A DNA stretch of 17,712 nt from a virus (lineage: Duplodnaviria; Heunggongvirae; Uroviricota; Caudoviricetes). The DNA lies in the IMG/VR virus record IMGVR_UViG_2537561977_000021, positions 1 to 17,712 of that record, one strand, 5' to 3'. Made by a program: the position numbers and the translations under genes. Positions 2,644-17,712 of the stretch are shown piece after piece. Every line of letters begins with the position of its first letter. The stretch's first letter is position 1. The notes below the pieces were generated by a model. The model was given only the letters and a program-made list of their open reading frames with translations, was not told the origin of the DNA and made no database searches.

Positions 2644-2678
2644 TCGAACAATGGCGACAACAATTTCCCATTGAAGCG

Positions 2679-3497
2679 ATGTGTCAGGTATTTGGTGTAT
2701 CCAGGAGCGGTTATTACAACTGGGTACAGCATGAACCCTCAGACAGAAAACAAAGTGATGAGCGGCTAAAACTGGAGATTAAGGTGGCACATATCCGCAC
2801 TCGCGAAACATATGGAACCCGGCGGCTCCAGACGGAGCTGGCAGAGAATGGCATCATCGTTGGTCGTGACCGACTGGCACGTCTTCGTAAGGAGCTAAGG
2901 CTACGCTGTAAGCAGAAACGCAAGTTCAGAGCGACTACGAACTCGAACCACAATCTGCCAGTTGCGCCAAATCTGCTGAACCAGACGTTCGCTCCTACAG
3001 CACCAAATCAGGTCTGGGTGGCGGACCTGACGTATGTTGCCACACAGGAGGGATGGTTGTACCTCGCTGGCATCAAAGATGTTTATACGTGCGAAATTGT
3101 CGGCTACGCCATGGGAGAGCGCATGACAAAAGAGCTGACAGGTAAAGCCCTGTTTATGGCGCTCAGGAGCCAGCGCCCACCTGCCGGGCTAATCCACCAC
3201 TCTGATCGAGGTTCACAGTACTGCGCATACGATTACCGGGTCATACAGGAGCAGTTTGGTCTGAAAACATCAATGTCGCGTAAAGGTAACTGTTACGACA
3301 ACGCTCCGATGGAAAGCTTCTGGGGAACGCTGAAAAATGAGAGCCTGAGCCACTATCGTTTTAATAACCGGGATGAAGCCATCTCAGTAATACGGGAATA
3401 CATTGAGATTTTCTACAATCGTCAGCGTCGTCACTCTCGTCTGGGGAATATCTCCCCGGCAGCCTTCAGGGAAAAATATCATCAGATGGCTGCTTAA
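2679..3497 (+). CDS. IS3-family (IS600) transposase OrfB, DDE catalytic domain; made as an OrfAB fusion by -1 frameshift
   Basis: 272 aa from the first ATG. The frame is open upstream to the slippery site (reads ...KYALIEQWRQQFPIEAMCQVFGVSRSGYY). DDE integrase-core motifs present (WVADLTY, HSDRGSQY, YDNAPMESFWGTLK). Confidence 0.85.
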   Translation: MCQVFGVSRSGYYNWVQHEPSDRKQSDERLKLEIKVAHIRTRETYGTRRLQTELAENGIIVGRDRLARLRKELRLRCKQKRKFRATTNSNHNLPVAPNLLNQTFAPTAPNQVWVADLTYVATQEGWLYLAGIKDVYTCEIVGYAMGERMTKELTGKALFMALRSQRPPAGLIHHSDRGSQYCAYDYRVIQEQFGLKTSMSRKGNCYDNAPMESFWGTLKNESLSHYRFNNRDEAISVIREYIEIFYNRQRRHSRLGNISPAAFREKYHQMAA

Positions 3498-3553
3498 AAA
3501 AAGAACAAATGGTAGTGTCCGCTATTGCCAGTACACCTCAGCGTTCGCTGTAT

Positions 3554-3733
3554 TTACCGCCAGTATTCAATGCACATGACCGCCATGAACACCCCTAAAA
3601 AAAGGGCATTTATATGTCCAAACATTAATATCAAAACATCAATTTTTTCCATATACCTTGCTGTGAAGATGATGGGCATACATGATGCGAACAACCAGAA
3701 CGCAACAAACAAAAACTGCAATGCGTTTTTCAT
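3554..3733 (-). CDS. small hydrophobic protein (59 aa, about two predicted TM helices), hypothetical
   Basis: ATG at 3733 is preceded by GTAGGGGGAATA (strong SD, about 4-nt spacing). Product MKNALQFLFVAFWLFASCMPIIFTARYMEKIDVLILMFGHINALFLGVFMAVMCIEYWR. AT-rich context; stop is 14 bp from the IS600 right end. Confidence 0.35.
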   Translation of the reverse strand: MKNALQFLFVAFWLFASCMPIIFTARYMEKIDVLILMFGHINALFLGVFMAVMCIEYWR

Positions 3734-3945
3734 TATTCCCCCTACAATCAATGTGCAATAACATTTAAACACACCTCAATTTGGCCGGACATATAAATAT
3801 CTAAACCAGAAAAAATCACTTACATAGCGTTACAAACTCTTTAGTCTAAATACTCATCGTAAAACATTCCCCATACTTATCAGTCCGTTCCGCGCCAGGT
3901 AGCTTATTGCCTTATCTGGCAACCTATAATCAGGTTTCCGCTTTT

Positions 3946-4368
3946 TCAGTTGGCTGGTCGTTTAACCGACATAGTTAACCCATTAATCTGGTTGCCGGAT
4001 GCTGGTGGATTTTCGCGTTTTAGTTGTTCATAAAAGTGCACAGCTTTAACCAGTTCTTCTGATGTAACCGGGACTGGTGGGGCAGTGAATAAGGCCTGAA
4101 TTTCATAGTTCGGCCTGTCGTTACAATCCTCTTTTTTCGGTACATATTTCCAGTCACCAACCCACAACTCCCCCTGAGAGTCCATAACACCTTTTTTCAC
4201 GTAGCGATATCGCCACGCTATCGGCTCTGCTTCCAGCGATGCCCGTGCAATTTTGAATAACTCGCCCTCTACTCGCGCCATCCCTGAATTGGGGTGGCAT
4301 TTCGTAATCGCTATTTTTAATTTGGCTTCTTCGATTAATTGTTCTTTTGTTAATTCAGTCATTTTCAT
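3946..4368 (-). CDS. hypothetical prophage protein (nin-region), 140 aa
   Basis: ORF with ATG at 4368 or 4362. Position and N-terminal charged helix suggest an Ead/Ea22-like protein, unconfirmed. A hairpin CCGCC-CTTTCA-GGCGG lies just upstream. Confidence 0.55.
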   Translation of the reverse strand: MKMTELTKEQLIEEAKLKIAITKCHPNSGMARVEGELFKIARASLEAEPIAWRYRYVKKGVMDSQGELWVGDWKYVPKKEDCNDRPNYEIQALFTAPPVPVTSEELVKAVHFYEQLKRENPPASGNQINGLTMSVKRPAN

Positions 4369-4458
4369 TACCGCCCTTTCAGGCGGCCTCCTGATGTTCT
4401 GAGGGTGCAGAAATCCCTCCGGTTAAGGATTAAATTTTATTTGCTGTGCTAAATTTAA

Positions 4459-4914
4459 TTATTCAGTTTTTATTCCTGCTCTCAAAACAGCCTCTGCCAT
4501 TCTGATATCCGGATTTTCTGAAATCATCTTTTCCGGCGAGTCGCAATCACCACCACATTCAGTTATGCGTTCATGACCAAAACGAATTGTGGTTTTGTGC
4601 GCATTAATCATTTGTGTAAGCGCATCTGTCAATTCTGCAATGCGTTTGTCTTTAACTTCCAGCTCTTTCAGTAAAGCCAGTACGTCAGGATCGCTAACAT
4701 CAACGACGGTTACGCGCGATTTCAGGTAATGCTCATCCGCAAAAGTTCGACCAGTTTTAAAATATCCATCATCCCCCTCACCTGTGCAGGCATACACAAT
4801 ATGCGTTCTGGAAAATATGCGCTGTATCGACATTTCATCGCCACAAACAGGACATTCCGGCACCTGAATTGGTGAATAACGTTCACGTAATGCCTGGTAA
4901 TTAGTCTTGCACAC
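4459..4914 (-). CDS. hypothetical prophage protein with CxxC zinc-ribbon-like motifs, 151 aa
   Basis: GTG start at 4914 preceded by AGGAG (7-nt spacing). CPVCG and ECGGDCD motifs plus a coiled-coil-like segment. Overlaps the upstream gene by 14 nt (operon). Confidence 0.55.
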   Translation of the reverse strand: MCKTNYQALRERYSPIQVPECPVCGDEMSIQRIFSRTHIVYACTGEGDDGYFKTGRTFADEHYLKSRVTVVDVSDPDVLALLKELEVKDKRIAELTDALTQMINAHKTTIRFGHERITECGGDCDSPEKMISENPDIRMAEAVLRAGIKTE

Positions 4915-5206
4915 TGGCTGTCTCCTGAAAAATCACCGCATGCCCCAGTTTCTCCGCCAGCGCCAGTTCTGCCTTAGCGCCTGCTGACCGCTGCCAGCCT
5001 TTCAGCATGTAAATCGCATCCACACAACGAATCATCGCCATGCAGATATCCATGTACTGCGGCTGTGTCAGCCCGTCCGGAAGTACTGCCGGGTTTAAGA
5101 CGGTATGCCCTTCCCGTTTCAGTTCCTCTTCCGCATTGTGAAACGCCTCACGGTTGAAATTTTTATACCCGGTCATTGGACCGGCGATATAGACTCTCAC
5201 CCTCAC
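4901..5206 (-). CDS. DUF4406 family protein (nucleoside 2-deoxyribosyltransferase-like fold)
   Basis: 101 aa starting MRVRVYIAGPMTGY...NREAFHNAEEELKREGHTVLNP, typical of DUF4406 as recalled. GTG start overlaps the upstream stop (GTGA) with AGGAGG 7 nt upstream. Confidence 0.7.
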   Translation of the reverse strand: MRVRVYIAGPMTGYKNFNREAFHNAEEELKREGHTVLNPAVLPDGLTQPQYMDICMAMIRCVDAIYMLKGWQRSAGAKAELALAEKLGHAVIFQETASVQD

Positions 5207-5664
5207 GCCATCACCTCCTGAAAATTACCCTGATAAAACGACAATATGCGCTGCATAACTTCGCTCTTCCGGCACTCGCGACAGATTATGTTTAGGCGAC
5301 TGTCGTAGCGACGTATTTCTCCGTCAGGTAATGACCAGATAAGGTCCGGATCAACCGCAGATGGTTTCTTCAGCTTTGCCCTTGAGAGCTTTTTACGGGC
5401 ATTTTGCCAGTCCTTACGCGCCTGTTCAGACGGGAATAACCCGTAACCAGAGTTGTATACATCGCCACTGGCAACCAGCTCTCTGGCCAGAACGCTCATC
5501 AGATATCTTGTTGCCCCAGTTTTAGCTTCCAGTTGTCGTAACGTCTCGCGCCCACTCTGGCGTACGAGTTCAAGAACCTGCCCTTTAATTTTTCCCGCTC
5601 TTCTTGTGTAAAAACTTTTGCCACAAGCCCTCCTGAAAATTACCTCATGACCAGAAATTAACAC
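5203..5664 (-). CDS. hypothetical prophage protein, possible winged-helix DNA-binding, 153 aa
   Basis: ORF translationally coupled to the replication gene (stop TAA 5667-5665, GTG 5664, AGGGGG SD). Function unknown. Confidence 0.5.
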   Translation of the reverse strand: MLISGHEVIFRRACGKSFYTRRAGKIKGQVLELVRQSGRETLRQLEAKTGATRYLMSVLARELVASGDVYNSGYGLFPSEQARKDWQNARKKLSRAKLKKPSAVDPDLIWSLPDGEIRRYDSRLNIICRECRKSEVMQRILSFYQGNFQEVMA

Positions 5665-6606
5665 TTACCCCCTGAAGCCCGGCGGAATTTCGTTATCCGG
5701 TTCAGAAATATGATTCACACAACGCTGGTTGTTCGTGCCGCTTACCGGGAGCAACCAGGGGTTCTCAAAATTCCGGTCCGGTCCAAAAAACGTCGTCGCT
5801 CGCTGAACAAATTCCGTTCCCGTTTTCCCGGTAGCCGCCAGGTATCTTGCGTAACGCCTCACGCCATCCAGCATGGCCTCTGGTGGCACCCCCTCGCGTA
5901 ATCTGGCCTTCCAGGCACTGAAAGCGGATTTCTTCGGGTTTGCCCCGGCACGCAACGGGTACTCCCGCCAGACCTGTTCGAACACATCCGGATAATCCAC
6001 TCGTCCCACAGACTGCCCGGTTTTTTCCGGGACTACCCGATCGGCTTCCCGCTGAATGGCGGAATCGGCTTCAGGCTGCTGCAGTTGGTGTGATTGCTCC
6101 GGCCTTGCGGTCATCACCTGCTGCACAGCGCCCGAATCGGCTTTCAGCGCATACGCTGAATCGGCTTCCGGTGTCGTGCCTGCTGGCTGACCAGGATTGA
6201 CGGTCTGAACATCCCCTGCCTGGTTCGTGGCGATTTTTTCGCCATGAACCATAGTGTTTTTGTCCTGTTCCTGTTCTTTCTCCTGTTCCTGTTCTTGGCT
6301 TCGAAGCCCCTTTAAAGCCCCTTCGAAGCCCCTTACCGTATTTCGGTTGTTATTTCGCCTTACATCCAGATGAAAATCCGTCTTATATCTGTCATAAAAC
6401 GCTGAAAGAAAAGCGTTTTCAGGTAATGACGCATATTCACTCCTGACACCTGCACAACGGTTATCGCCAGGCTTTAACTTTCCCCCAACCTGCCAGGCTG
6501 CCATTTCATGGACCCAGACCATCTCGGAATCATGGTCATAACTGCAAAAACCCACTTCGACAGCCCTTCGAAGCCCCTTCCGGACCAAGCCCGGTTTCAT
6601 GAGCAA
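5665..6606 (-). CDS. phage replication protein, C-terminal portion (phage conserved C-terminal domain, Phg_2220_C-like)
   Basis: 313-aa ORF. C-terminus DVFEQVWREYPLRAGANPKKSAFSAWKARL...YARYLAATGKTG...FFGPDRNFENPW matches the conserved replication-protein C-terminal domain as recalled. Contains an EQEQEKEQEQ linker and the iterons. Frame differs from the N-terminal piece. Confidence 0.6.
   Translation of the reverse strand: MLMKPGLVRKGLRRAVEVGFCSYDHDSEMVWVHEMAAWQVGGKLKPGDNRCAGVRSEYASLPENAFLSAFYDRYKTDFHLDVRRNNNRNTVRGFEGALKGLRSQEQEQEKEQEQDKNTMVHGEKIATNQAGDVQTVNPGQPAGTTPEADSAYALKADSGAVQQVMTARPEQSHQLQQPEADSAIQREADRVVPEKTGQSVGRVDYPDVFEQVWREYPLRAGANPKKSAFSAWKARLREGVPPEAMLDGVRRYARYLAATGKTGTEFVQRATTFFGPDRNFENPWLLPVSGTNNQRCVNHISEPDNEIPPGFRG
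6299..6333. repeat. three tandem 11-bp iteron-like repeats (TTCGAAGCCCC / TTTAAAGCCCC / TTCGAAGCCCC) inside the replication gene
   Basis: Direct tandem repeats read directly from the sequence. A second cluster (TTCGACAGCCC, TTCGAAGCCCC) lies at 6556-6577. Confidence 0.7.
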
Positions 6607-6763
6607 GGTACAAAACCGGCAGGTAATACAGGCCCAGCATGTTTGCGTGAGGGGATGTCATCAGGTAAAAAGCAACCACCTGCGCTTCTGCGCCTGCCTT
6701 TCTGAGTTCTTTCCCCGTTTCTCCCAGCCAGAATCGCGGGGAAACTTTTGCGTAATCACGCAT
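6536..6763 (-). CDS. phage replication protein, N-terminal fragment (separated from downstream part by frameshift)
   Basis: ATG at 6763 preceded by GAGGTGG (about 4-nt spacing). N-terminus MRDYAKVSPRFWLGETGKELRKAG...VVAFYLMTSP is typical of replisome-organizer N-terminal domains. Ends at a TGA inside the second iteron cluster; the +1 frame continues as the 313-aa ORF. Confidence 0.5.
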   Translation of the reverse strand: MRDYAKVSPRFWLGETGKELRKAGAEAQVVAFYLMTSPHANMLGLYYLPVLYLAHETGLGPEGASKGCRSGFLQL

Positions 6764-6984
6764 GTCCACCTCATCTGGTGCCGAACCTTCCTCCGGATAT
6801 AATCTGTGATTCCCCAATCAACAGAACCAGAGGAGGTTCGACATGTCTTTTTTGAAAAGCCTTTATCGGGCTCATATATTAAAAGTTGCAGCAACAAATC
6901 ACTGGCAAGAAGGAACAGATGAAATGTTGCCGGATTACCGGGCATGGCTGCGCGCCGAAACATACCTTCGTCTCGATATGCTGA

Positions 6985-7494
6985 TTAACGATCTTCAAAA
7001 AGAGGCTCCATCCACTCAAACCCTTCAGGGTGTCGGCGCTGTTCGCGTTCTGGTATCTCGCCATAACGCTCTCTCAGTAACTGAAGTGCGTCAGCTTTCT
7101 TTTGCTGAACTGATTTTCTTGCTTCAGCCAGCTCTGGAATCAGTGAATATCCCATCGGAGGTGTTCCGGTATCCGCCCCACGTGAACCAACAGCTACAAG
7201 CTGCACAAGACAACAGGCATGCTGGATTGACTCCCTGCTCAGAGGCTGAATGGGATCATTCTCTGCTGAAGAGATACCAAGATTTGTATAATCCTCAATA
7301 AGCCGGGCGCACGCTTCAGCATCAGCCAGTTTTTTTCTGGTTTCCTTGCGCTGTTCTCTGACGGACAAACGCCAGAGCAGCGCATTGGCTTTATGCATCA
7401 GCCACTCTGCCAGTTCCACATCAGATAAACCGCCACGCCAGATGTGTGGACTGTTTTCGTAAACGCTCAGTGTCAGTTTTTTGTCATTGGTCAT
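6985..7494 (-). CDS. hypothetical early-operon protein, 169 aa
   Basis: ATG at 7494 lies 13 nt after the YdaT-like stop, in the same direction as the cro operon. First-codon-position G enrichment favours this strand. An antisense plus-strand ORF (6843-7301) with a strong RBS overlaps it, so the call is uncertain. Confidence 0.4.
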   Translation of the reverse strand: MTNDKKLTLSVYENSPHIWRGGLSDVELAEWLMHKANALLWRLSVREQRKETRKKLADAEACARLIEDYTNLGISSAENDPIQPLSRESIQHACCLVQLVAVGSRGADTGTPPMGYSLIPELAEARKSVQQKKADALQLLRERYGEIPEREQRRHPEGFEWMEPLFEDR

Positions 7495-7507
7495 ATTTAT
7501 TGCCCCG

Positions 7508-7933
7508 TCAATGCACAGCCAGAGTATTTCCTGCCGGACCACCACGATTCATCTGATCGAACAGAACAATCGCTGATGCAACGAAATCATCGATATCTTT
7601 CACCAGCTGTTCCTGCGTCTCCAGCAGTTCCCGAAAATAAACTGAACTGTGGCTGCGCATTCGGGCCACCAGCGGAGGCGGCATTGCCTTTTCGATCGCT
7701 GGTAACAACGCCTGAATTTTTTTAACAGCATCAGGGGTGTCTTTCTCTATCCAGCGGAAAATTTTCTGGGTATTGCGAGCCAGGGCTTCCGGATGGCTGT
7801 CGTCGTACAGTTCAGGGAACGTCATCCCCAGTTCGAAATAAGTCCGGGCTATCTCAGCCGCCGGAACTTTCTCACCATCAGGATATGCCCATGCATTCAT
7901 CGCCATACGGATGTGCTCATGCTTGATTTTCAT
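7508..7933 (-). CDS. YdaT-like (CII-like) prophage regulatory protein
   Basis: 141 aa starting MKIKHEHIRMAMNAW.... ATGA overlap with the upstream Cro-like gene. Family assignment from recalled YdaT features. Confidence 0.65.
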   Translation of the reverse strand: MKIKHEHIRMAMNAWAYPDGEKVPAAEIARTYFELGMTFPELYDDSHPEALARNTQKIFRWIEKDTPDAVKKIQALLPAIEKAMPPPLVARMRSHSSVYFRELLETQEQLVKDIDDFVASAIVLFDQMNRGGPAGNTLAVH

Positions 7934-8193
7934 GAATCACCCCCCGCCGATGGTTGTGTGTTAGCCTGAAACTCAGCAGGCAAGCCGTCAGTTGGGTTGG
8001 GGTAGGTTTTACTGTCAATCTCATGTGGGGTCACCACCCATCCCGTTGCTTCACACCAACGTAATATTTTTTCTCCTGTAAGTTTTGCACGCCCCGTTAT
8101 AACGTGGCTGACCATCCCCTGGGATGCGCCAACAATCTCAGCAAATGAACTCTGGGTTATATGAAAATGATGCAAATATTCTCCAAGATTCAT
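7930..8193 (-). CDS. YdaS/Cro-like HTH transcriptional regulator (lytic-side repressor)
   Basis: ATG at 8193 preceded by AGGGCGG; product MNLGEYLHHFHITQSSFAEIVGASQGMVSHVITGRAKLTGEKILRW... has an HTH. Divergent from the repressor gene across an operator-bearing intergenic region. The ORF-track start at 8220 is TTG. Confidence 0.75.
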   Translation of the reverse strand: MNLGEYLHHFHITQSSFAEIVGASQGMVSHVITGRAKLTGEKILRWCEATGWVVTPHEIDSKTYPNPTDGLPAEFQANTQPSAGGDS

Positions 8194-8229
8194 AATCCGC
8201 CCTATGTGATGTGTTACCAACGCATAATT

Positions 8230-8270
8230 AATAGCACTGTTATTTTTAAAAGTAAATAGCGATGCTATTT
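8230..8270. promoter_or_regulatory. OR-like operator region: two palindromic sites AATAGC-N3-GYTATT between divergent cro-like and repressor genes
   Basis: Site A AATAGCACTGTTATT (8230-8244); site B AAATAGCGATGCTATTT (8254-8270, perfect 7-bp half-sites). Candidate promoter elements overlap on both strands. Confidence 0.6.
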
Positions 8271-8304
8271 CAAAGTGATTAGCAATCTTATTAGAATTGG
8301 ATGT

Positions 8305-8805
8305 ATGAAAAGAAAATCACTGTCAGACACCGACCTCAACGCCGCCAGAAGACTGAAAGAAATCTGGATGGCAAAGAAATCTCAGTTGGGATTGACTCAG
8401 GAACGTGCGGCGGAAATTATGGGGTTTTCAACACAAGGGGCGGTAAGTCACTACCTAAATGGTCAAACCCCACTAAACCTTGAGGCTGTTCTAAAGTTTG
8501 CTGGCTTACTGAAAGTTCCCCCTGAGTCAATCAGGCCAGACATGGCAGATTTGCTGCAAATTGCAAGGATGTATTGTCGAGAACCACAGCAAGATAACAT
8601 AGTCGCATTACCAGCAGACACAGAACAAACAGAGGATGAACTACCGTTTGCCGTAGAGCCGATGGAACGAGATTTAATCCATACGTTCAGAGCTTTTCCG
8701 AAAGAAGATCAAGAACACATGCTTCAGGAGATGAAAGATAAAAAAGAATCAATGGATCGTACGGTTGCGCGGTGGTTAGCTGCACAAAAAGGCCGTCGCG
8801 CCTAA
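8305..8805 (+). CDS. CI-like prophage repressor / PaaR-like HTH (XRE family) regulator
   Basis: HTH LGLTQERAAEIMGFSTQGAVSHYLNG. Divergent from the cro-like gene and followed by the paaA-parE-like pair. ATG at 8305 (MKRKSL...) lies just downstream of TAGAAT at 8292-8297, so the mRNA may be leaderless; the alternative ATG at 8275 is not excluded. Confidence 0.7.
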   Translation: MKRKSLSDTDLNAARRLKEIWMAKKSQLGLTQERAAEIMGFSTQGAVSHYLNGQTPLNLEAVLKFAGLLKVPPESIRPDMADLLQIARMYCREPQQDNIVALPADTEQTEDELPFAVEPMERDLIHTFRAFPKEDQEHMLQEMKDKKESMDRTVARWLAAQKGRRA

Positions 8806-8824
8806 ATCAGAGGAGATATGTAAA

Positions 8825-9019
8825 ATGAGTACAGTCCTTTCCCCAATGGTTTCAGAATTTGAGACAGTTGAGCAAGAAAATAGTTACAACGAATGGCTGC
8901 GGGCCAAAGTAGCAGCAAGCCTCGCGGATCCCCGCCCGGCGATTCCGCATGATGAGGTAATGGCGGAAATGGAACAAATTATTGCCCAAATTGCTGCTGC
9001 AACTCACAGAGGTGAATAA
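8825..9019 (+). CDS. type II antitoxin, PaaA-like (ParE-associated antitoxin)
   Basis: 64 aa with GAGGAG 8 nt upstream. Sequence ...SPMVSEFETVEQENSYNEWLRAKVAASLADPRPAIPHDEV... resembles PaaA2-type antitoxins as recalled. Stop overlaps the toxin start (TAATG). Confidence 0.75.
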   Translation: MSTVLSPMVSEFETVEQENSYNEWLRAKVAASLADPRPAIPHDEVMAEMEQIIAQIAAATHRGE

Positions 9020-9309
9020 TGTTACCCGTTTTATGGCTACCATCTGCTCGTGATGATTTGCGCCAGATCGTAGCCTACATAGCTAAAGAAAATCCCGCGG
9101 CAGCACGCAGAATGAAAATTCGAATTGAAACATCCGTTTTGCCGCTCACAGAGCATCCTTACCTGTATCCTCCAAGCGAGCGAGTTCTTGGTCTTCGTGA
9201 AATTGTAACTCATCCTAACTACATCATCCTTTACCGAGTAACAGCATCAAGCATAGAAGTAGTAAATATTGTGCATTCTCGAAGACAGTATCCAGGCAAA
9301 AACAGTTAA
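9019..9309 (+). CDS. parE: ParE/RelE-family type II toxin
   Basis: 96 aa with hallmark RelE/ParE motifs (WLPSARDDLRQIVAYIAKENPAAARRM..., YIILYRV..IEVVNIVHSRR). Translationally coupled to the antitoxin. Confidence 0.85.
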   Translation: MLPVLWLPSARDDLRQIVAYIAKENPAAARRMKIRIETSVLPLTEHPYLYPPSERVLGLREIVTHPNYIILYRVTASSIEVVNIVHSRRQYPGKNS

Positions 9310-9325
9310 TTATTCCCGCCGACAG

Positions 9326-9348
9326 AACCACCTTAGGGTGGTTTTTTC
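9326..9348 (+). terminator. Rho-independent terminator ending the repressor-antitoxin-toxin operon
   Basis: AACCACC-TTAG-GGTGGTT followed by TTTTTTC. Confidence 0.7.
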
Positions 9349-9363
9349 TTGCTCCAACAAAAA

Positions 9364-9403
9364 CAATAGCGATGCTATTTACACCAAAAATAATGATGCT
9401 ATT
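9364..9403. promoter_or_regulatory. OL-like operator region: two further copies of the AATAGC-N3-GCTATT operator motif
   Basis: Site C CAATAGCGATGCTATTT (near-identical to site B) and site D AATAATGATGCTATT. They lie about 1.1 kb from the OR-like pair and upstream of the rightward early genes. Confidence 0.6.
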
Positions 9404-9582
9404 GTTTCAGGCGTCAACCCACCCCGCCCCACAGAATGCAGGGCAATACTTCGAGTTACCAGACAGTGGTCAGGGGTTAAGTAGCCAGCCCGAGGCGTAA
9501 GAACATGACGGCAGGGTTCAACTTTAACTATGCAGCAGGTTTTTGTTCCGCTCCCCCGGCGTTAAGGGGAAATGAGGTCAGC

Positions 9583-9735
9583 ATGGATACTATCAATCTT
9601 GGCAACAGCGAATCTCTGGTATGTGGCGTGTTTCCCAACCAGGACGGTACGTTCACCGCGATGACGTATACCAAAAGCAAAACGTTTAAAACCGAAGCTG
9701 GCGCGCGTCGCTGGTTATCCAGAAATACTGACTGA
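9583..9735 (+). CDS. small early protein (51 aa), YdfA-like by size and position
   Basis: ATG at 9583 with GAGG 5 nt upstream; product MDTINLGNSESLVCGVFPNQDGTFTAMTYTKSKTFKTEAGARRWLSRNTD. The ORF also extends to an upstream ATG at 9505 (alternative start). Confidence 0.45.
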   Translation: MDTINLGNSESLVCGVFPNQDGTFTAMTYTKSKTFKTEAGARRWLSRNTD

Positions 9736-9746
9736 TGAGGTTAACG

Positions 9747-10121
9747 ATGGAATTTAAAGATTTACCAACACCTTTCCAGGAAATGGCAGCGAATATAGTT
9801 CGTTCTCAATTGGCGACTCTTGACCTGAGTACCGTAGAAAAAGAAACCATAGATAATATATCCGGTAACGTGCGCCGTGCCTTTATCGGGTTGTACGAAG
9901 AGAAGCAGCACTCTGATAAGCATGATTCCTCTGAAAAATACTTCCTGGAATTAATGGATATCATTAACAAGGGGTTTGGTTTGTTGATGGAAAAGAAAGG
10001 GATTCGAATAGAACCCCTTAAAAACCATTTTACTGAGTGCAACATTAATTCCTGTGATTTAAAGCATCCCACTCCAGATGGGAAAGTTGAAGCCAACTAT
10101 AAAATATCAATTAATCATTAA
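9747..10121 (+). CDS. hypothetical protein, AT-rich moron gene (124 aa)
   Basis: ATG at 9747 with GAGG 6 nt upstream (alternative ATG at 9735). Low-GC coding sequence with no recognised motif. Confidence 0.55.
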   Translation: MEFKDLPTPFQEMAANIVRSQLATLDLSTVEKETIDNISGNVRRAFIGLYEEKQHSDKHDSSEKYFLELMDIINKGFGLLMEKKGIRIEPLKNHFTECNINSCDLKHPTPDGKVEANYKISINH

Positions 10122-10125
10122 GTTC

Positions 10126-10150
10126 TCCACGGGTGAGGTGGAGAACATGC
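10126..10150. terminator. stem-loop between convergent genes (GTTCTCCAC-GGGTGAG-GTGGAGAAC), possible bidirectional terminator
   Basis: Perfect 9-bp stem with a second weaker hairpin at about 10153-10184. No clean T-tract, so terminator function is tentative. Confidence 0.35.
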
Positions 10151-10199
10151 GCCGGACACGGATAAATCTCCGGCATGCTCTTTAACATTCTGGATATTC

Positions 10200-10646
10200 C
10201 TAACCACAAAGAAATCGCATCAATTTAGATTTTGTGGGCAGCTTCTCTTGTTGTTCGATGGAAACGCCTATTTTGATCTGTGTTTTTAAGATCGCAATAT
10301 CTTTAAGTGATGACCAAATATGATTATCCGTTTTTTCCAGAATTTTTAACTGCATTTTCAATTCAGAATCAGAATATTTTTCTGCATCATCAAAAAGCTG
10401 CAAATATTCTGCGGATTTTCTCATGGCGTTACCTGACTTTTGTCCGAATCCATAAATCGTTTGGACGGTTGCGATCACAACAATAAAAACGCCAGAAATT
10501 TCCGGAATGAATCCGCCAATGACAGATGAACCGAGGATAATACTCACTACTGAGAGAAGTTTATCGAGACGACCAGTCGCTACCGAAAATAGTTGCTCAA
10601 GAAAATAGCCATATAAAATTCTGTCAAGAATATCATCCCGGTCCAT
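10200..10646 (-). CDS. two-TM membrane protein, candidate superinfection-exclusion (SieB-like position) or abortive-infection effector
   Basis: 148 aa with ATG at 10646 and AGGTGA 6 nt upstream. Hydrophobic segments LSVVSIILGSSVIGGF and VFIVVIATVQTIYGF precede a charged C-terminal domain. Low GC; opposite orientation to the surrounding early-left genes. Confidence 0.6.
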   Translation of the reverse strand: MDRDDILDRILYGYFLEQLFSVATGRLDKLLSVVSIILGSSVIGGFIPEISGVFIVVIATVQTIYGFGQKSGNAMRKSAEYLQLFDDAEKYSDSELKMQLKILEKTDNHIWSSLKDIAILKTQIKIGVSIEQQEKLPTKSKLMRFLCG

Positions 10647-10652
10647 ACATCA

Positions 10653-10799
10653 TCACCTACTTGTTTGGTTGTTGCTGTTCCCCCTCTCCTCCGAAGGAGC
10701 TGGAGATGGTTTTGGTCGAATGTTTTTCTCTGGTATGTGATCCCAGACTGTTTTATGTGTCGAATTGCCACCACCTGCTTGTGCTCTTTGCTCTGTCAT
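10653..10799 (-). CDS. small hydrophilic protein (48 aa), hypothetical, coupled to the downstream membrane protein gene
   Basis: ATG at 10799 with AAGGA 6 nt upstream. Its stop TGA lies within the SD of the membrane-protein gene. Weak call. Confidence 0.3.
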   Translation of the reverse strand: MTEQRAQAGGGNSTHKTVWDHIPEKNIRPKPSPAPSEERGNSNNQTSR

Positions 10800-11025
10800 A
10801 TGATTTCCTTGGATCGTTGGGGATATCCAGATTATACAGATTTCTTGTCGTTGGGGAATGACAGGAACCACCTCGCCTGACGTGGTTAAAAGCAGGCACA
10901 CAACACGAAAGCGCACGGCGAAGTCATTTCTCCCTCTGTTGCGTGTCGCCGGTATCTTCGACCGTGCGCTTCCGGTTGTGGCACTCCGCGAAATGGCGCG
11001 GCGGTAAGTATGGCGGGGTTATCCT

Positions 11026-12319
11026 CTGAGGGATCCCCAGAAAATTTAGTAAACCATTATCATATTGGTATACCGTTGCTGTAGAACTTTCAGCCCTGCG
11101 TCAAGTGACAGTGTGTTTAGTATGAGTGGAGAATGTCGAATCACATTCTCCGCCAGTTTTAATAACGAGATGACTCGCCTGTGCTTCACTGTATTTGCCT
11201 GATATTTATGATGTATCCCTTTGTTTTCCAGGCTGAAACCGCTTAACCACATAATGATACTGGCTAATGTTGCGATCAGACTCAATACCGTGACCCGCCC
11301 GGATGAATGACTGGCACCAAACCGTAGTCCAAATCCCCAGCGAGGATTTTTTTCATCCCTGAAATTTTGCTCAATTTGCATTCTACGGCTGTATAATTTC
11401 ATTACCTGTTTTGGCGAGAACTCAGTACTGTTTGTGAAAATAAACCATGGTGATTTCCCGGCAGTACGAGCTTTAGCCGTCACCGATGGTCTGGTTGCTC
11501 TTTCCTTCGAGCGTTTAAATCTACGACCTTTAGGCTTACTTTTATAAAGATAAAAATGCCCTTCATGTTGTGCATTTTTATCTCGACCCAGCAGGCCTTC
11601 ACCTAAATAAATTGCTGTCGTTGATGCTTTTGTGCCTGAGTCCGACACCTTTTCCCAGCCATTACCAACATTGTAATAATGATTGCCCAGTACCCGGCAA
11701 ATATAGGTCCAGCCACGGGAGCGGAGCTGTTGGAACCATCGCCCCTGAAAACCGGCATCTGTAATAACAATGACATCAGTCCCGGGGGAAAAGCACTCAG
11801 CAAGCGATTCCAGAAAACGCTCATGTACATCTGCATTCGCTGTCTGTGATGATGGAACGACACAACTCATCAACGGTAAAGAACGCCCGTCACATGCCAG
11901 GCTTGCCCGCAAAAGCTGAAAACGAGAGGCATGATAAGCACTCTAGTCAATGAGTATCACAACACGAGACATTCCCCGCGTAATCTTTTGGGTAATTCGC
12001 TGAAAAATGGTGGAAACCTCATTTTGCAAATGTCGATTCCCCAACAGTCGATCCACCCGCTTTATTTTGTTTTTAACTGATGCCGTACCGGTTAAATGAC
12101 GCCCGATACTGGTAAGTGTGAGGGAAGCGCCATTTATTACAGCATTAGTTGCGTCAATCAGTGATTTTTGACGGTAAAGATGCAAAGGGGCCAGTATGTT
12201 GTTAAGGAAATTTTGGCATAATGAACGTGCAGGCATAGTGGTGATCTCCTTGAAATTGTTAGCACAATCAATTAGATCACATCTCACTATGCCTGTCTTG
12301 TTTTCTGGGGATTCCTCAG
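11026..12319 (-). mobile_element. IS10-like insertion sequence (IS4 family), about 1294 bp, transposase inactivated
   Basis: Terminal inverted repeats CTGAGGGATCCCCAGAAAA (left) and TTTTCTGGGGATTCCTCAG (right). Flanking direct repeat GGGTTATCCT (11016-11025 and 12320-12329), consistent with a 9-bp target duplication; boundaries uncertain by 1 bp. Confidence 0.8.
11046..12236 (-). pseudogene. IS10-like transposase interrupted by an in-frame amber (TAG) codon
   Basis: The ORFs 11943-12347 and 11046-11912 are in the same frame, separated by TAG at 11945-11943. N-terminal motif KNKIKRVDRLLGNRHL and the C-terminal part align with IS10 transposase as recalled; the TAG sits where IS10 has Trp (TGG). 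Likely start is ATG at 12236 (MPARSL...). Confidence 0.75.
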
Positions 12320-12407
12320 GGGTTATCCTTACCCCCACAGGTAGCACCGGGTTGTCAGGTTGACCATACGCCCGAGTGACAACCCCGCCACAACATCTCC
12401 ATGTTGA

Positions 12408-12466
12408 GGCTTGTGTGAGACCTTTGGCGGCATCAGTTTAATTGCTGGCTGATGTCCGCCCTTTTT
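12408..12466 (+). ncRNA. dicF: DicF-like small RNA with intrinsic terminator
   Basis: ...TTGTGTGAGACCTTTGGCGGCATCAGTTTAATTGCTGGCTGATGTCCGCCCTTTTT resembles E. coli DicF (recalled as UUUCUGGUGACGUUUGGCGGUAUCAGUUUUACUCCGUGACUGCUCUGCCGCCC). Hairpin GGCGGCATCAG/CTGATGTCCGCC plus T5. dicB and ydfD follow downstream as in Qin. 5' end approximate; 5' region diverges. Confidence 0.55.
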
Positions 12467-12467
12467 A

Positions 12468-12637
12468 AAGTGAATTTTGTGATGCGGTGAATGCGGCTAA
12501 GCGCACGCGGAACAGTTAAAAAAGTGATAGGCACTCCGTATTTGTTTTATGGAGTTGGTTTCCCTGTATTCCGGCGTTAATTGTTAACTGGTTAACGTCA
12601 CCTGGAGGCACCAGGCACCGCATCACAAAATTCACTT
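12468..12637. repeat. pair of 22-bp inverted repeats (AAGTGAATTTTGTGATGCGGTG) flanking about 126 bp
   Basis: Plus 12468-12489 matches the reverse complement of 12616-12637 (21-22 of 22 positions). Internal palindromes CCTGG-AGGCA-CCAGG and CATCACA...TGTGATG. Lies immediately downstream of the DicF-like terminator. Confidence 0.6.
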
Positions 12638-12766
12638 CTGTGATGAAAGGTGAGAGAAAATGTTGAATGTAGCTATTGAAAACCAGAACGGGTGGAATTA
12701 TAGTGCACCTGCACCTCATAAAACGGGTGCCGGGATTGGCCTCCTGTTAATCACATTGGTGCCTGA

Positions 12767-12791
12767 ACACGCACCAAAAGCGTGTTTTTTG
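12767..12791 (+). terminator. Rho-independent terminator (ACACGC-ACCAAAA-GCGTGT + T6)
   Basis: Hairpin plus TTTTTT read directly. It lies inside the long ORF-track frame 12660-13508, arguing that Rha starts downstream. Confidence 0.55.
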
Positions 12792-12950
12792 TTGCCTGCA
12801 TTTCATCATTCAATGGCAGCTCAGGCGGGAGCTTCTCACGAAGCGCCGGGTTCCGATGTGACCGGTAAGGCCAATCCCGTCTGGGCTACCACCAATCGGA
12901 TTGGCCTCTGCGGTGGTGGCAGTACTGCTTTCACATCGGAGGATGCCGTT

Positions 12951-13508
12951 ATGGCTACTATCACTACCCTTTCTCACCCTTGTGTAACCATCGAAAATGG
13001 TCGCGCTGTCACCACATCTGTCGCCATTGCGGAATTCTTCCGCAAAATGCATAAAGACGTTCTGAAAAAAATAGACAACCTAGAATGCTCTGAGAAATTT
13101 AGCGGGCGCAATTTTGCGCCCGCCGAATATCTTGATGAGCAAGGCAAAAAACGCCCAATGTACCAGATCACCAAAAACGGCTTCGTTTTCCTGGTGATGG
13201 GATTCACTGGCAAAAAAGCCGCTGCATTTAAAGAAGCCTACATTGCTGAGTTCGATCGCATGGAGGCCGAACTGCGCCAGAATAACACCCCACCCACTGA
13301 CAAAATAATTCCAGGCGATGGCCGCACCCTGGTTGTTCACTTCGACGAACGCGGCAACATCAGATTCACCGAAACCGTTCCTGATGGCGCACGGGTCTGT
13401 ACCATGGAGACTTTCCGGTTTTATCTGGAAGAACAGGGATGGACTCTTGTTAACCGAGGCGCAATTAAAAATATGACTGTAGAGCAATTACTCAAAATTC
13501 ATTGTTGA
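12951..13508 (+). CDS. Rha-family phage regulatory protein (Phage_pRha domain)
   Basis: ATG at 12951 with GGAGGA 7 nt upstream. Motifs VTTSVAIAEFFRKMHKDVLKKIDNL...YQITKNGFVFLVMGFTGKKAAAFKEAYIAEFDRMEAEL match the Rha family as recalled. The ORF-track start at 12660 is rejected in favour of this one. Confidence 0.7.
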   Translation: MATITTLSHPCVTIENGRAVTTSVAIAEFFRKMHKDVLKKIDNLECSEKFSGRNFAPAEYLDEQGKKRPMYQITKNGFVFLVMGFTGKKAAAFKEAYIAEFDRMEAELRQNNTPPTDKIIPGDGRTLVVHFDERGNIRFTETVPDGARVCTMETFRFYLEEQGWTLVNRGAIKNMTVEQLLKIHC

Positions 13509-13518
13509 GGACGCGATA

Positions 13519-13707
13519 ATGGAAACGTTATTACCAAACGTTAATACGTCTGAAGGTTGTTTTGAAATTGGTGTCACTATCAGTAACACGGTATTTACTG
13601 AAGATGCCATTAACAAGAGAAAACACGAACGGGAGTCATTAAATAAAATATGCATTGTTTCAATGCTGGCTCGTTTGCGTCTGATGCAAAAAGGATGCTG
13701 GCGATGA
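13519..13707 (+). CDS. dicB: cell-division inhibitor DicB (62 aa)
   Basis: METLLPNVNTSEGCFEIGVTISNTVFTEDAINKRKHERESLNKICIVSMLARLRLMQKGCWR is near-identical to E. coli DicB as recalled. GAGGA 8 nt upstream. Lies downstream of the DicF-like RNA as in Qin. Confidence 0.8.
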   Translation: METLLPNVNTSEGCFEIGVTISNTVFTEDAINKRKHERESLNKICIVSMLARLRLMQKGCWR

Positions 13708-13892
13708 ATACAGCATTTGCACTTATTCTGACGGTTTTTCTTGTTTCCGGAGAGCCAGTTGATATTGCAGTCAGTGTTCACAGAACAATGCAGGAATGTA
13801 TGGCCGCAGCAACCGAACAGAAAATTCCAGGCAACTGTTATCCGGTCGATAAAGTTATTCACCAGGATAACGAAATCCCGGCAGGATTTTAA
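13704..13892 (+). CDS. ydfD: YdfD-like small protein with N-terminal hydrophobic segment (Qin prophage lysis-associated protein)
   Basis: MNTAFALILTVFLVSGEPVDIAVSVHRTMQECMAAATEQKIPGNCYPVDKVIHQDNEIPAGF matches YdfD as recalled. AAGGA 9 nt upstream. Overlaps the dicB stop (ATGA). Confidence 0.7.
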   Translation: MNTAFALILTVFLVSGEPVDIAVSVHRTMQECMAAATEQKIPGNCYPVDKVIHQDNEIPAGF

Positions 13893-14125
13893 AACAGCAC
13901 CGTAATAAATATCCAGTTTCATTCTTATATGTCAGCAATGGCAGAGATTTGTTCACCCTTAAATCTGTGATGAGGTTTATCAATAATGAGCACTGATAAA
14001 GAAGAATTTGCACTATATTGCGAAGCAAAAAATGACAAAGTAAGAAAACGCCTGGGAATTAAAGGTGTTTTTACTGGACTACAGCAAAAAAATTATCTGT
14101 TGCAATCTCCCGCTGCATTACCGCA

Positions 14126-16426
14126 ATGGATGACAACGATTATGATGAAGACGACTTTAAAAAACCCGTCCGCGTCAATTTGCCCGTTGTTGACGACCTT
14201 CCGCCAGAAGGCGTGTTTGATACTGAATTCTGCAACCGCTATGAAAAAGGCGGGAAAGATGGCATCACAATGACATTTATCGGCCCTTCCCCCTCTGTTC
14301 AGGACAAACCAGCCAGCACTGACAATACCAACATCAACGGCGAAGACATGACTGAGATTGAGGAGAGCATGCTTCTGCCTGTCTCCGGTCAGGAACTGCC
14401 CATTCGTTGGCTTGCTCAACACGGCAGCGAAAAACCAGTAACGCACGTTTCACGCGACGAACTCCAGGCATTACACATTGCACGGGCTGAAGAACTACCG
14501 GCTGTTACTGCCCTGGCTATTTCGCATAAAACCAGTCTGCTCGACTCGCTGGAGATTCGCGACCTCCACAAACTGGTTCGTGACACTGACAAAGTTTTCC
14601 CTAATCCTGGTAATTCAGACCTGGGACTAATAACTGCTTTTTTCGAAGCATACCTAGACGCTGACTACACTGATCGGGGTCTGCTGACAAAAGAGTGGAT
14701 GAAAGGAAATCGTGTTTCACGCATCACCCGCACGGCTTCCGGTGCTAATGCTGGTGGTGGGAACAAAACCGATCGCAATCCGAATTTAGTACACACCCTC
14801 GACACACTGGATGTGGAGATTGCAGCAGCCACACTTCCGATGGATTTTAATATTTATGAAATTCCGGGCAGCGTTTATCGTCGCGCAAAAGAAGTAGTCC
14901 TGAAAAAAGAAAGTCCGTTCAAAGAATGGTCCGCAGCACTTCGTGCAACCCCGGGTATTCTGGACTATTCCCGCGCCGCTATTTTTGCACTTATCCGAAG
15001 CGCACACCCTGAATTTTATCACTACCCGGGACGCCTTCAGGGGTATATCAACGCCTATTTGACGGAAACTGATCACGAGAACCCCAGCAAGGAAACTCTC
15101 ACAGCTGCCCGGCATACGCCGGAAAAAGATATCCTGGAAGAAATTAACCGCGAGGTGGTTACTGAGCGTGAAACAGAAGAAGAAAAACCACAACCATCTG
15201 ACGCAATGGCAGGTGAACAGGCAACAACTGAAACAATGGAACCGGATACAACTGAACATTGCCAGAACGCGCAGTCGCTGGATGCTCAGTCGCAGGTGAG
15301 TTCCGCTAACCAAGTAAAAGTCACCGCTGACGAAGTAAACAAAATTATGCAGGCAGCCAATATCAGCCAGCCTGACGCCGATAAGTTACTTGCTGTATCG
15401 CGTGGTGAATTTGTTGAGGGGATTAGCGACCCTAATGATCCGAAATGGGTCAAGGGGATCCAGACTCGCGATTCTGTGAACCAGAACCAGCATGAATCGG
15501 AACGGAACGACCAAAAAGCGGAACAAAACAGCCCAAATGCGTTACAAAACGAGCCAGAAACGAAACAATCCGAACCAGTAGCGCAACAGGAACCGGAAAA
15601 AGTCTGCACCGCCTGCGGTCAGAGCGGTGGCGGCAACTGCCCTGATTGTGGCGCGGTGATGGGCGACGCAACATACCAGGAAACATTCGATGAAGAGAAT
15701 CAGGTTGAAGTTCAGGAAAATGATCCGGAAGAAATGGAAGGCGCTGAACATCCACACAAGGAGAACCCTGGCGGCAATCAGCATCACGCCAGCGATAATA
15801 AAACTGGCGAGGCGACAGATCCCTTAATTAAGGTGAATGGTCATCATAAGCTCACATCCACCAGCAGAGCGGGGATTCATCTGATGATCGACCTTGAAAC
15901 CATGGGAAAAAATCCCGATGCCCCGATTATCTCAATAGGCGCAATATTTTTCGATCCACAAACCGGAGATATGGGACCGGAATTTAGCAAGACCATCGAT
16001 CTGGATACTGCTGGCGGAGTCATTGATCGTGACGTCATTAAATGGTGGCTGAAGCAATCACGTGAAGCGCAGTCTGCCATTATGACCGATGAAATCCCGT
16101 TAGATGATGCACTACTGCAATTGCGGGAATTTATCGACGAAAACTCCGGTGAATTTTTTGTTCAGGTCTGGGGTAATGGGGCCAACTTCGACAACGTGAT
16201 TTTACGCCGTTCATACGAACGACAGGGTATCCCCTGCCCGTGGCGCTACTGCAACGATCGCGATGTACGCACAATCGTTGAGCTGGGGAAAGCCATAGAC
16301 TTCGATGCCAGAACTGCTATCCCATTCGAAGGTGAGCGCCATAATGCACTTGATGACGCTCGTTACCAGGCAAAATACGTTTCAGCTATCTGGCAAAAAC
16401 TGATCCCGAGTCAGGCTGATTTTTAA
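14126..16426 (+). CDS. large prophage exonuclease: acidic N-terminal region, central Cys-rich zinc-ribbon-like motif, C-terminal DEDDh (DnaQ-like) 3'-5' exonuclease domain
   Basis: 766-aa ORF. C-terminal motifs IDLETMG (Exo I), WGNGANFD (Exo II), HNALDDARYQAKY (Exo III, DEDDh); CTACGQSGGGNCPDCG in the middle. The true N-terminus may lie in the overlapping -1 frame ORF 13986-14273, which has GAGG 10 nt upstream. Confidence 0.75.
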   Translation: MDDNDYDEDDFKKPVRVNLPVVDDLPPEGVFDTEFCNRYEKGGKDGITMTFIGPSPSVQDKPASTDNTNINGEDMTEIEESMLLPVSGQELPIRWLAQHGSEKPVTHVSRDELQALHIARAEELPAVTALAISHKTSLLDSLEIRDLHKLVRDTDKVFPNPGNSDLGLITAFFEAYLDADYTDRGLLTKEWMKGNRVSRITRTASGANAGGGNKTDRNPNLVHTLDTLDVEIAAATLPMDFNIYEIPGSVYRRAKEVVLKKESPFKEWSAALRATPGILDYSRAAIFALIRSAHPEFYHYPGRLQGYINAYLTETDHENPSKETLTAARHTPEKDILEEINREVVTERETEEEKPQPSDAMAGEQATTETMEPDTTEHCQNAQSLDAQSQVSSANQVKVTADEVNKIMQAANISQPDADKLLAVSRGEFVEGISDPNDPKWVKGIQTRDSVNQNQHESERNDQKAEQNSPNALQNEPETKQSEPVAQQEPEKVCTACGQSGGGNCPDCGAVMGDATYQETFDEENQVEVQENDPEEMEGAEHPHKENPGGNQHHASDNKTGEATDPLIKVNGHHKLTSTSRAGIHLMIDLETMGKNPDAPIISIGAIFFDPQTGDMGPEFSKTIDLDTAGGVIDRDVIKWWLKQSREAQSAIMTDEIPLDDALLQLREFIDENSGEFFVQVWGNGANFDNVILRRSYERQGIPCPWRYCNDRDVRTIVELGKAIDFDARTAIPFEGERHNALDDARYQAKYVSAIWQKLIPSQADF

Positions 16427-16441
16427 TGTTCAACCCTAATT

Positions 16442-16467
16442 GCCGCTAACCGTATATAGTTAGCGGC
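16442..16467. promoter_or_regulatory. perfect 9-bp-stem inverted repeat (GCCGCTAAC-N8-GTTAGCGGC) upstream of xis-int
   Basis: Read directly; no adjacent T-tract on either strand, so more likely a protein-binding or regulatory site than a terminator. Confidence 0.4.
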
Positions 16468-16484
16468 GGTTATGAGATATAGCT

Positions 16485-16688
16485 ATGAGCAGCTTATTTT
16501 TAACCGAAGATGAATTGCTAATATTAACGGGCTGCAAATATGCAAGCCACCAGCGAAAATGGTTAATGGAAAACGGGCTTCCGTTCTATACCAATCGTAG
16601 TGGCAAACCGATTGTCAGCCGGGATCTATTTACCTGCAATAAAACTTTACCACCACGCGAGGTAGAGCCGAATTTTGGTGCGATCTGA
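16485..16688 (+). CDS. excisionase-like protein (DUF4224-like) upstream of integrase
   Basis: 67 aa starting MSSLFLTEDELLILTGCKYASHQRKWLMENGLPFYTNRSGKPIV..., typical of DUF4224 excisionase-like proteins as recalled. Stop overlaps the int start (TGATG). Confidence 0.65.
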   Translation: MSSLFLTEDELLILTGCKYASHQRKWLMENGLPFYTNRSGKPIVSRDLFTCNKTLPPREVEPNFGAI

Positions 16689-17712
16689 TGGGAAGACGAA
16701 GGAAAAATCCTGAACACGAAAAATTACCTCCAAATGTATACCCAAATAAATATAGTTATGTATGGAAACCAACATCCAGAGAATCTGTCACACTAACCGC
16801 CATCAAGGATGGTTTAGCTGCTTTATGGAAAAAGTATGAGGAAACTGTAAATAATCGCGATCGTGCAATGACATTCGGTCGCTTGTGGGAAAAATTCCTC
16901 GCCAGCGCCTATTACAGTGACCTTAGTCCAAGAACACAAAAAGATTATCTGCAACATCAAAAAAAGTTGCTTGCCGTATTCGGTAAGGTACCAGCGGATT
17001 CCATAAAACCAGAACACATCCGTCGATACATGGACAAAAGAGGGGAGCAGAGTAAAACGCAAGCCAACCATGAAAAAAGCAGTATGTCCCGTGTTTACAG
17101 TTGGGGGTATGAGCGAGGGTACGTGAAGGCTAACCCATGTGCAGGTGTAAGTAAATTCAAGGCCAAAAACCGCGAACGATATGTAACCGACAAAGAATAC
17201 CAGGCAGTATTAAGCGTTGCACCTCTTCCTGTTTTTATCGCAATGGAAATTGCCTATCTGTGTGCAGCGAGGGTTTCCGATGTGTTATCGCTGAAATGGG
17301 AACAGATTGGAAACGACGGGATATTCATCCAGCAAGGGAAAACCGGAAAAAACAGATAAAAGCATGGAGTCCACGATTACAGGCAGCGATCGAAAAAGCA
17401 AAACAGTTACCAAAATCTGCCTATGTGATCAGCAATCAATACGGCAACCGATATATGTACAAAGGCTTTAACGAAATGTGGGTAGATGCAAGAAATCGTG
17501 CTGGAAAAATTTCAGGTATTTTAACCGACTTCACCTTTCATGATCTGAAGGCGAAAGGAATTTCAGACTATGAAGGAAGCAGCCGGGATAAGCAACTTTT
17601 CTCTGGTCACAAAACCGAAGGGCAAGTGCTAATCTATGACAGGAAGGTTAAAGTTTCACCAACACTTGATGTCCCGTTACCTGAAAATATTCCAAGAAAA
17701 TATTCCAAGTAA
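16688..17712 (+). pseudogene. lambda-family tyrosine integrase, disrupted by a frameshift in an A6 tract
   Basis: The N-terminal ORF 16688-17359 (MGRRRKNPEHEKLPPNVY...GKTGKNR*) and C-terminal ORF 17260-17712 (...FHDLKAKG...GHKTEGQVLIYDRK, catalytic His/Tyr region) lie in adjacent frames that switch at AAAAAA 17347-17352. An A7 would give the continuous ...GKTGKKQIKAWSP.... Confidence 0.8.

Follow-up and report, generated by a model that had tools for sequence, protein, structure and literature searches.

The stretch of DNA analysed here (IMG/VR record IMGVR_UViG_2537561977_000021, 17,712 nucleotides, hereafter the window) corresponds to the early-left arm of a Qin-like lambdoid prophage. The order is a DicA-like repressor, relB/relE, a terminator, a promoter-like site, a ydfA-like gene, an open reading frame, a reverse-oriented gene and the leader of the small RNA DicF, into which an insertion sequence (IS) is placed; beyond the IS it continues with DicF, an isrK/C4/Rha module, dicB, a DUF1482 gene, exo, a DUF4224 gene and int. 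The prophage features that concern the insertion are the following:

8275–8805, DicA-like repressor gene
9324–9345, relBE terminator
9378–9405 (+), candidate early (dicBp/PL-like) promoter, TTTACA, 16 nt, TATTGT with TG, preceding the ydfA-like gene
10906–11025 (+), 5' part of the pre-DicF leader, now severed from DicF (K-12 Qin alignment, inverted-repeat search)
12330–12411 (+), 3' part of the pre-DicF leader, still joined to DicF (K-12 alignment)
12412–12461 (+), DicF-like small RNA and its terminator, stem 12429–12456 followed by a T-run (Rfam RF00039, terminator scan, K-12 alignment)
12660–13508 (+), isrK/C4/Rha-family module between DicF and dicB
12676–12704, promoter-like site of the isrK/C4/Rha module
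12711–12790, isrK, with its terminator at 12765–12787
12809–12896, C4 antisense
13519–13707 (+), dicB, cell-division inhibitor gene (NCBIfam CellDivInhibDicB, 133.3 bits against a cut-off of 100)

The candidate early promoter occupies the place of K-12 dicBp, about 1.6 kb upstream of the insertion. The isrK/C4/Rha module is of the Gifsy-1 / P1-P7 type and is found in N51 and absent from E. coli RM11911 and K-12: N51 shows the same order including the Rha module, without the IS, and RM11911 has neither the IS nor the Rha module. The module probably changes dicB expression in this prophage variant. A reverse-oriented gene of 148 aa (10200–10646, −), common to RM11911 and N51, stands in place of ydfB/ydfC, and early transcripts would reach DicF by crossing it antisense.

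The match to RF00039 reaches 45.4 bits, just below the gathering score of 48, with E-values of 1.4e-7 to 2.4e-8 over model positions 1–52, and the locus is assigned to a divergent DicF on account of the low E-value, the full-length match, the terminator and the syntenic position. Alignment of the IS-removed window with K-12 revealed that the 137-nt pre-DicF leader is nearly invariant, more so than DicF itself. In K-12, DicF arises solely from processing of the polycistronic dicBp transcript, with no internal promoter found; RNase III generates the 5' end of a 190-nt DicF precursor and RNase E the 53-nt form (PMC10448788). A stem in the leader of the window (10906–10918/10962–10974) has its 3' arm aligned with the K-12 RNase III site, at about 10969, a position taken here as the probable equivalent of that site. 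The insertion point lies 57 nt downstream of this position, with another 82 nt to mature DicF, and the insertion splits a predicted closing stem (GGCGGGGUU/AACCCCGCC) with a modest z of -2.3. The first-pass annotation had located the element between the early promoter and DicF/dicB; this holds with respect to the candidate promoter at 9378–9405, but the element lies inside the pre-DicF leader and not merely upstream of it. A sub-threshold match to Rfam STnc100 was also seen at 12473–12629 (+), in the interval from the DicF terminator to the isrK promoter; it scores 34.9 bits (E 9e-5), the gathering score being 47.

The insertion itself comprises these features:

11016–11025, left copy of the target-site duplication, GGGTTATCCT, 10 bp
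11026–12319 (−, transposase strand), ISEc60 (IS4 family, IS10-like), defective copy, 1294 bp (1293/1294 identity to annotated copies)
11026–11044, transposase-distal terminal inverted repeat, CTGAGGGATCCCCAGAAAA (sequence reading, inverted-repeat search)
11046–12236 (−), transposase pseudogene, 396 codons plus stop, interrupted at codon 98 (translation, Pfam, NCBIfam, alignment)
11943–11945 (−), amber codon TAG in place of Trp98 TGG, causal base at window 11944
12214–12222 (+), candidate outward pOUT-like extended -10, TGGCATAAT (manual reading), 7 nt 5' of the hairpin start
12229–12299 (+), RNA-OUT-like antisense hairpin over the transposase Shine-Dalgarno and ATG, stem 12230–12295
12271–12299 (−), candidate pIN-like transposase promoter, AAGACA, 17 nt, TCTAAT (manual reading)
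12301–12319, transposase-proximal terminal inverted repeat, reverse complement CTGAGGAATCCCCAGAAAA (sequence reading, inverted-repeat search)
12320–12329, right copy of the target-site duplication, GGGTTATCCT, 10 bp

Sequence reading and a repeat search place the insertion sequence proper at window 11026–12319 (1294 bp); the interval 11016–12329 first given for it, correct in position and description, is the element plus both copies of the target duplication. The terminal inverted repeats are 19 bp long and match at 18 of 19 positions (left CTGAGGGATCCCCAGAAAA against the reverse complement of the right end, CTGAGGAATCCCCAGAAAA), and the transposase-proximal one is also kept in relatives. A query made of both flanks joined with one copy of the repeat gave contiguous matches of up to 99.4% identity, and the empty-site allele is found in E. 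coli RM11911, where a single GGGTTATCCT (position 4391) is bordered by flanks otherwise 99% identical and the uninterrupted sequence reads ...GTATGGCGGGGTTATCCTTACCCCCAC...; thousands of E. coli genomes also have an uninterrupted leader. That the element arrived by transposition, as had been proposed, follows from its inverted repeats, its target duplication and the empty-site allele.

Among seven other ISEc60 copies with readable flanks the direct repeat measures 10 bp in five, 11 bp in one and is missing in one. The repeats of independent copies read GGGGAAACCC, GAGTAAATCC, GGGCTGACCT, GGGAAAATTC(C) and GGAATCACCC, in addition to GGGTTATCCT here. The target duplication of ISEc60 is 10 bp, as against 9 bp in IS10; the direct repeat initially described as 9–10 bp is therefore present, at the larger size. 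From their sequences, the targets of ISEc60 seem to show a preference for G-rich...C-rich, often hairpin-like sites, which suggests a structured or palindromic target choice. The duplications (e.g. GGGGAAACCC, GGGCTGACCT, GGAATCACCC) are often located at the base of small GC hairpins, and the upstream flanks of the copies are alike (GGCGGGG...).

A megablast search of 5,426 complete E. coli genomes gave full-length matches of 99.9% identity annotated as 'IS4-like element ISEc60 family transposase', with 36–38 copies of ISEc60 in some of these genomes. Base-by-base comparison with two copies of CFSAN029787 and five more from FDAARGOS_944 and IMG/VR contigs showed that 1293 of the 1294 bases are identical to the two intact CFSAN029787 copies (transposase WP_001111632.1) and to the IMG/VR copies. 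A 99.9% match to a named IS is far more than chance resemblance would give. The element is already named in RefSeq, as ISEc60 of the IS4 family, and is known in kind. The protein with Trp98 restored matches Pfam DDE_Tnp_1 (PF01609, E 1.8e-20) and NCBIfam transpos_IS4_2 (360 bits against a cut-off of 152), and bears the marks of IS4-family transposases, i.e. the D, D, E triad and the Y-R-E-K signature, with YSRRMQIEQNFRDEK aligning with IS10A. It shares 52% identity with the ISSfl1 transposase and 35–36% with those of IS10A and ISVsa5 over 93% of the length, a degree of amino-acid identity that rules out the same IS species as IS10. The initial label "IS10-like" is justified by the 36% transposase identity and by termini sharing CTGA-GAATCCCC, but the element is the named ISEc60, with 10-bp duplications. 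A diverged relative occurs in the olive-fly symbiont Candidatus Erwinia dacicola (NZ_MAYS01000241.1), its 5' end about 85% identical and with TGG; it was the only match for the codon-98 region, TGG or TAG, in a scan of one genome per species.

The transposase frame runs on the minus strand from the ATG at 12236 to the stop at 11046, with TAG at codon 98 as its sole interruption. In place of the intact 396-aa transposase ORF of ISEc60, this copy thus has a frame broken by an in-frame TAG, and it is a defective member of ISEc60, not a different element. The only difference over 1294 bp from the intact copies, and from the sequence most frequent among the copies compared, is found at window 11944 (T here, C elsewhere), and codon 98 is TGG in 7/7 other ISEc60 copies compared. 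Trp98 is placed directly after the catalytic Asp97, and D97-W98-S99 is invariant in the alignment with IS10A and ISSfl1; the predicted catalytic DDE residues are D97, D160 and E289, all three aligning with IS10A. As read from the codons, the product ends at residue 97, without Asp160 and Glu289, and the loss of two of the three catalytic residues should leave the copy unable to supply its own transposase. Both the single-base TGG-to-TAG change at the Trp of IS10 and the non-autonomous state had been proposed in the first-pass annotation, and they agree with the codon as checked here and with the truncation predicted at residue 97. The Trp98 codon would have become amber by one G-to-A change on the coding strand, after or during insertion, and the copy, whose ends and RNA-OUT-like module are intact, would be movable only with transposase provided in trans by another copy.

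A 288-aa ORF that follows the amber codon was found on a single contig of the whole public gene-position collection (GCA_000188815.2, ADUP01000037.1), which is 100% identical to window 1046–17712. No identical ISEc60 copy, with TAG, appeared among the 5,426 complete E. coli genomes, and the occupied junction was found neither in these genomes (BLAST of a junction fragment) nor in viral and metagenome collections (junction scans). Because the other copies have TGG and the post-amber ORF is located on one contig, the TAG appears to be a private and recent one-base knockout rather than recoding. A TAG that is family-wide or recoded, as a reference copy with the same codon might have indicated, is ruled out by the seven other copies examined, all with TGG. 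When the exact 97-aa N-terminal product was looked up, the only matches were two contigs with ISEc60 at other sites, which by chance break off at that codon and are not TAG alleles. In two unrelated draft assemblies (GCA_041898755.1 and GCA_026583785.1) contigs stop exactly at the boundary between codons 97 and 98 of an ISEc60 copy at a different insertion site.

The 5' end of the transposase gene corresponds to the right end of the element and points toward DicF. A closer look at this end showed a hairpin (12230–12295) with a fold z of about -6.5 on both strands with respect to shuffled controls, whose stem pairs the Shine-Dalgarno and ATG of the transposase with upstream sequence; as modelled, the minus-strand form of this stem would sequester the transposase start codon in read-through transcripts. 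The Rfam RNA-OUT model (RF00240) aligns full-length at 12229–12299 (+), with a weak score (16.8 bits, E 6.7, gathering score 41) with respect to a genuine IS10A control (85.9 bits), and the match starts 7 nt inside the transposase gene in ISEc60 and IS10A alike. Pairing is kept in 90% of cells over six relatives, with 28–51% in slid controls. The covariation, two compensatory pairs, is not above shuffles (132/500; six relatives), so the structure is argued from thermodynamics and position only. Neither the pIN-like nor the pOUT-like site came up in the consensus promoter scan, and for this reason both promoters are treated as hypotheses. One GATC (12275–12278) overlaps the -10 of the candidate transposase promoter and another (11032–11035) lies in the transposase-distal end, with none in the proximal end. 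In IS10, GATC is present in the inside end and at the transposase promoter, and absent from the outside end. By analogy, these features point to an IS10-like control design for ISEc60.

With respect to DicF, an ISEc60 copy transposed into a GGG...CCT target in the pre-DicF leader of the Qin-like prophage, generating the 10-bp duplication, and a transcript from the early promoter would now face 1.3 kb of untranslated antisense IS RNA inside the DicF precursor. On the plus strand, C exceeds G over about 900 nt of the IS (negative GC skew), and hairpin and T-tract elements are located on this strand at 11126–11153 and 12230–12306, the hairpin at 12230–12295 being followed by TCTTGTTTTCT; promoter and terminator consensus scans are weak predictors. 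Since the transcript must cross antisense IS RNA with C over G and hairpin/T-tract sites, DicF is most likely uncoupled from the DicA-controlled early promoter. In the IS-free variant about 1 kb of untranslated sequence, including the reverse gene, already separates the last plus-strand ORF from DicF, so early transcription may have been limited beforehand, or antiterminated, also through the IS. Polarity on dicB, expected at first, appears doubtful, because dicB is preceded, also in the IS-free N51, by the isrK/C4/Rha module, which brings a promoter of its own and two terminators.

The rest of the prophage shows further damage. The integrase gene has a one-base deletion at about 17347 (A7 to A6) with respect to FDAARGOS_944, resulting in a frameshift, and the truncated 223-aa product recurs in 43 blocks of public assemblies, which makes it a real, shared allele. 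The exo gene (RecE-like exonuclease) is likewise frameshifted by a one-base deletion at about 14067 (GG to G) with respect to FDAARGOS_944. A complete IS600 (IS3 family; window 2278–3539, orfA of 100 aa and orfB of 272 aa) adjoins the hokD/sok locus (sok 2022–2197) and is absent from the 99.5–99.9% identical FDAARGOS_944 prophage. ISEc60 is present in 36 copies in the closest prophage relative found, and in up to 38 in the nearest relatives. The insertion is better explained by neutral decay in an IS-rich host than by adaptation; neutral decay is the simpler reading because int and exo are already frameshifted, IS600 is present and the relatives are IS-rich. We hold with strong confidence, as the best overall explanation of the locus, that ISEc60 inserted into the pre-DicF leader, that its transposase was cut by the Trp98 amber, that DicF is likely uncoupled, and that the process was neutral decay.

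Selection, by which silencing of the toxic dicBF genes would have stabilised the prophage, is improbable. Overexpressed DicF and DicB are toxic (PMC10448788), and a second, independent IS10 end is located 37 nt upstream of dicB in the same prophage lineage, but two cases make no trend, and thousands of E. coli genomes keep the leader uninterrupted. Besides, the operon is already under a DicA-type repressor, DicB and DicF can benefit the host (PMC10448788), and with 36 copies of ISEc60 in the closest relative a chance insertion is enough. The proposal that the insertion stabilises carriage of the prophage is not supported: the integrase was frameshifted already (a shared allele), so that excision is blocked regardless, exo is frameshifted, and IS600 has inserted elsewhere. 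The IS10 end just mentioned is a genuine one (…GAGGGGATCTCTCAG), lying 37 nt before the start codon of dicB in GCA_000268125.1 (AKNH01000039.1, positions 1–500), an assembly with the same int-frameshift prophage lineage. A different outcome for DicF would be that an outward IS promoter could replace the lost input. Work by Ciampi et al. in 1982 and Simons et al. in 1983 reportedly found that the pOUT promoter of IS10/Tn10 can activate adjacent genes. Escape of such transcripts past the RNA-OUT-like hairpin would give low, DicA-independent DicF expression, an outcome that we consider unlikely, as we do the run of these transcripts over the 92 nt from the IS end into DicF. The transposase 5' end does face DicF, the extended -10 TGGCATAAT is placed 7 nt before a hairpin of z -6.5, and the RNA-OUT model aligns full-length in the register of the IS10A control; however, that match falls short of significance (16.8 bits, E 6.7), its covariation does not exceed the shuffled control, the promoter scan left TGGCATAAT unflagged, and the TCTTGTTTTCT that follows the hairpin may end the transcript inside the IS. 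Constitutive DicF is moreover toxic in K-12 (PMC10448788). The fuller version, in which an intact IS10-style outward promoter 190 nt upstream would rewire DicF while the antisense RNA exerts multicopy inhibition on other ISEc60 copies, is decidedly unlikely; if true, a dead IS copy would drive DicA-independent transcription of a small RNA that controls division and metabolism.

The amber codon admits two other readings besides a recent knockout. That it is a sequencing or assembly error in a copy that is really intact ISEc60 is very improbable: the source is an older draft assembly (GCA_000188815.2), the window has lost single bases at two places, one of which is a poly-A run, and the TAG allele is found nowhere else, but the change is a substitution and not a homopolymer indel, the int frameshift of the same window is real (43 blocks of assemblies), and a collapsed consensus of multiple copies would give the majority TGG. 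That the amber is functional, either through suppressor or recoding read-through or because the 97-residue fragment inhibits other ISEc60 copies by binding their ends, has only the slightest chance of being right. In other IS families, truncated transposases have an inhibitory role. Conservation with IS10A and ISSfl1 is seen in the N-terminal third of the transposase, which, by analogy with IS10-type transposases, would be expected to hold the end-binding part; on the other hand all other copies have TGG, no tRNA gene, and hence no suppressor tRNA, was found in the window (ARAGORN), and the allele, known from one assembly only, gives no sign of maintenance.

The finding is in itself ordinary, a defective copy of a named IS in a decaying prophage. 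Its value lies mainly in annotation: the element is correctly named ISEc60 and not IS10, and its stop codon is identified as a one-base knockout private to this copy instead of recoding. The strain can be considered a natural mutant with DicF probably uncoupled from the DicA-controlled promoter, of possible use for the regulation of dicBF and also for the study of the so far uncharacterised ISEc60.

In comparison with ISEc60 of CFSAN029787 (WP_001111632.1), the copy has the same inverted repeats, length, 10-bp duplication and G-rich...C-rich type of target, and differs from ISEc60 elsewhere in the TAG at codon 98 and in a site that is new among the 5,426 complete E. coli genomes. With IS10 (IS10R/IS10A of Tn10) it shares D97-W98-S99, the CTGA-GAATCCCC termini, 36% transposase identity over 93%, GATC in the distal end only and a start-codon hairpin in the RNA-OUT register, with an Rfam RNA-OUT score far below the gathering score. 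IS10 is 1329 bp long and its target consensus is NGCTNAGCN. ISEc60, in contrast, measures 1294 bp and makes 10-bp rather than 9-bp duplications at targets that look like GGG(N4-5)CCY, from which we infer a 10-bp GGG...CCY target choice. ISSfl1 of Shigella flexneri (IS4 family) has the same ends, the same 5' hairpin with two compensatory pairs and 52% transposase identity, and is a distinct IS species.

The prophage shares with the dicBF region of K-12 Qin the order DicA-type repressor, ydfA-like gene, 137-nt leader, DicF, dicB, ydfD-like gene, exo and int. Here, however, relBE follows the repressor, ydfB/ydfC are replaced by other genes, one of them reverse-oriented, DicF and dicB are separated by the isrK/C4/Rha module, and the leader contains the IS. 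Polar IS or Tn10 insertions with residual pOUT expression offer a close parallel, since there too an IS is placed in a polycistronic transcript, the end with the outward promoter (here a candidate one) facing the distal genes; the present case differs in being known from sequence alone and in that the downstream "gene" is a processed small RNA and not an ORF.
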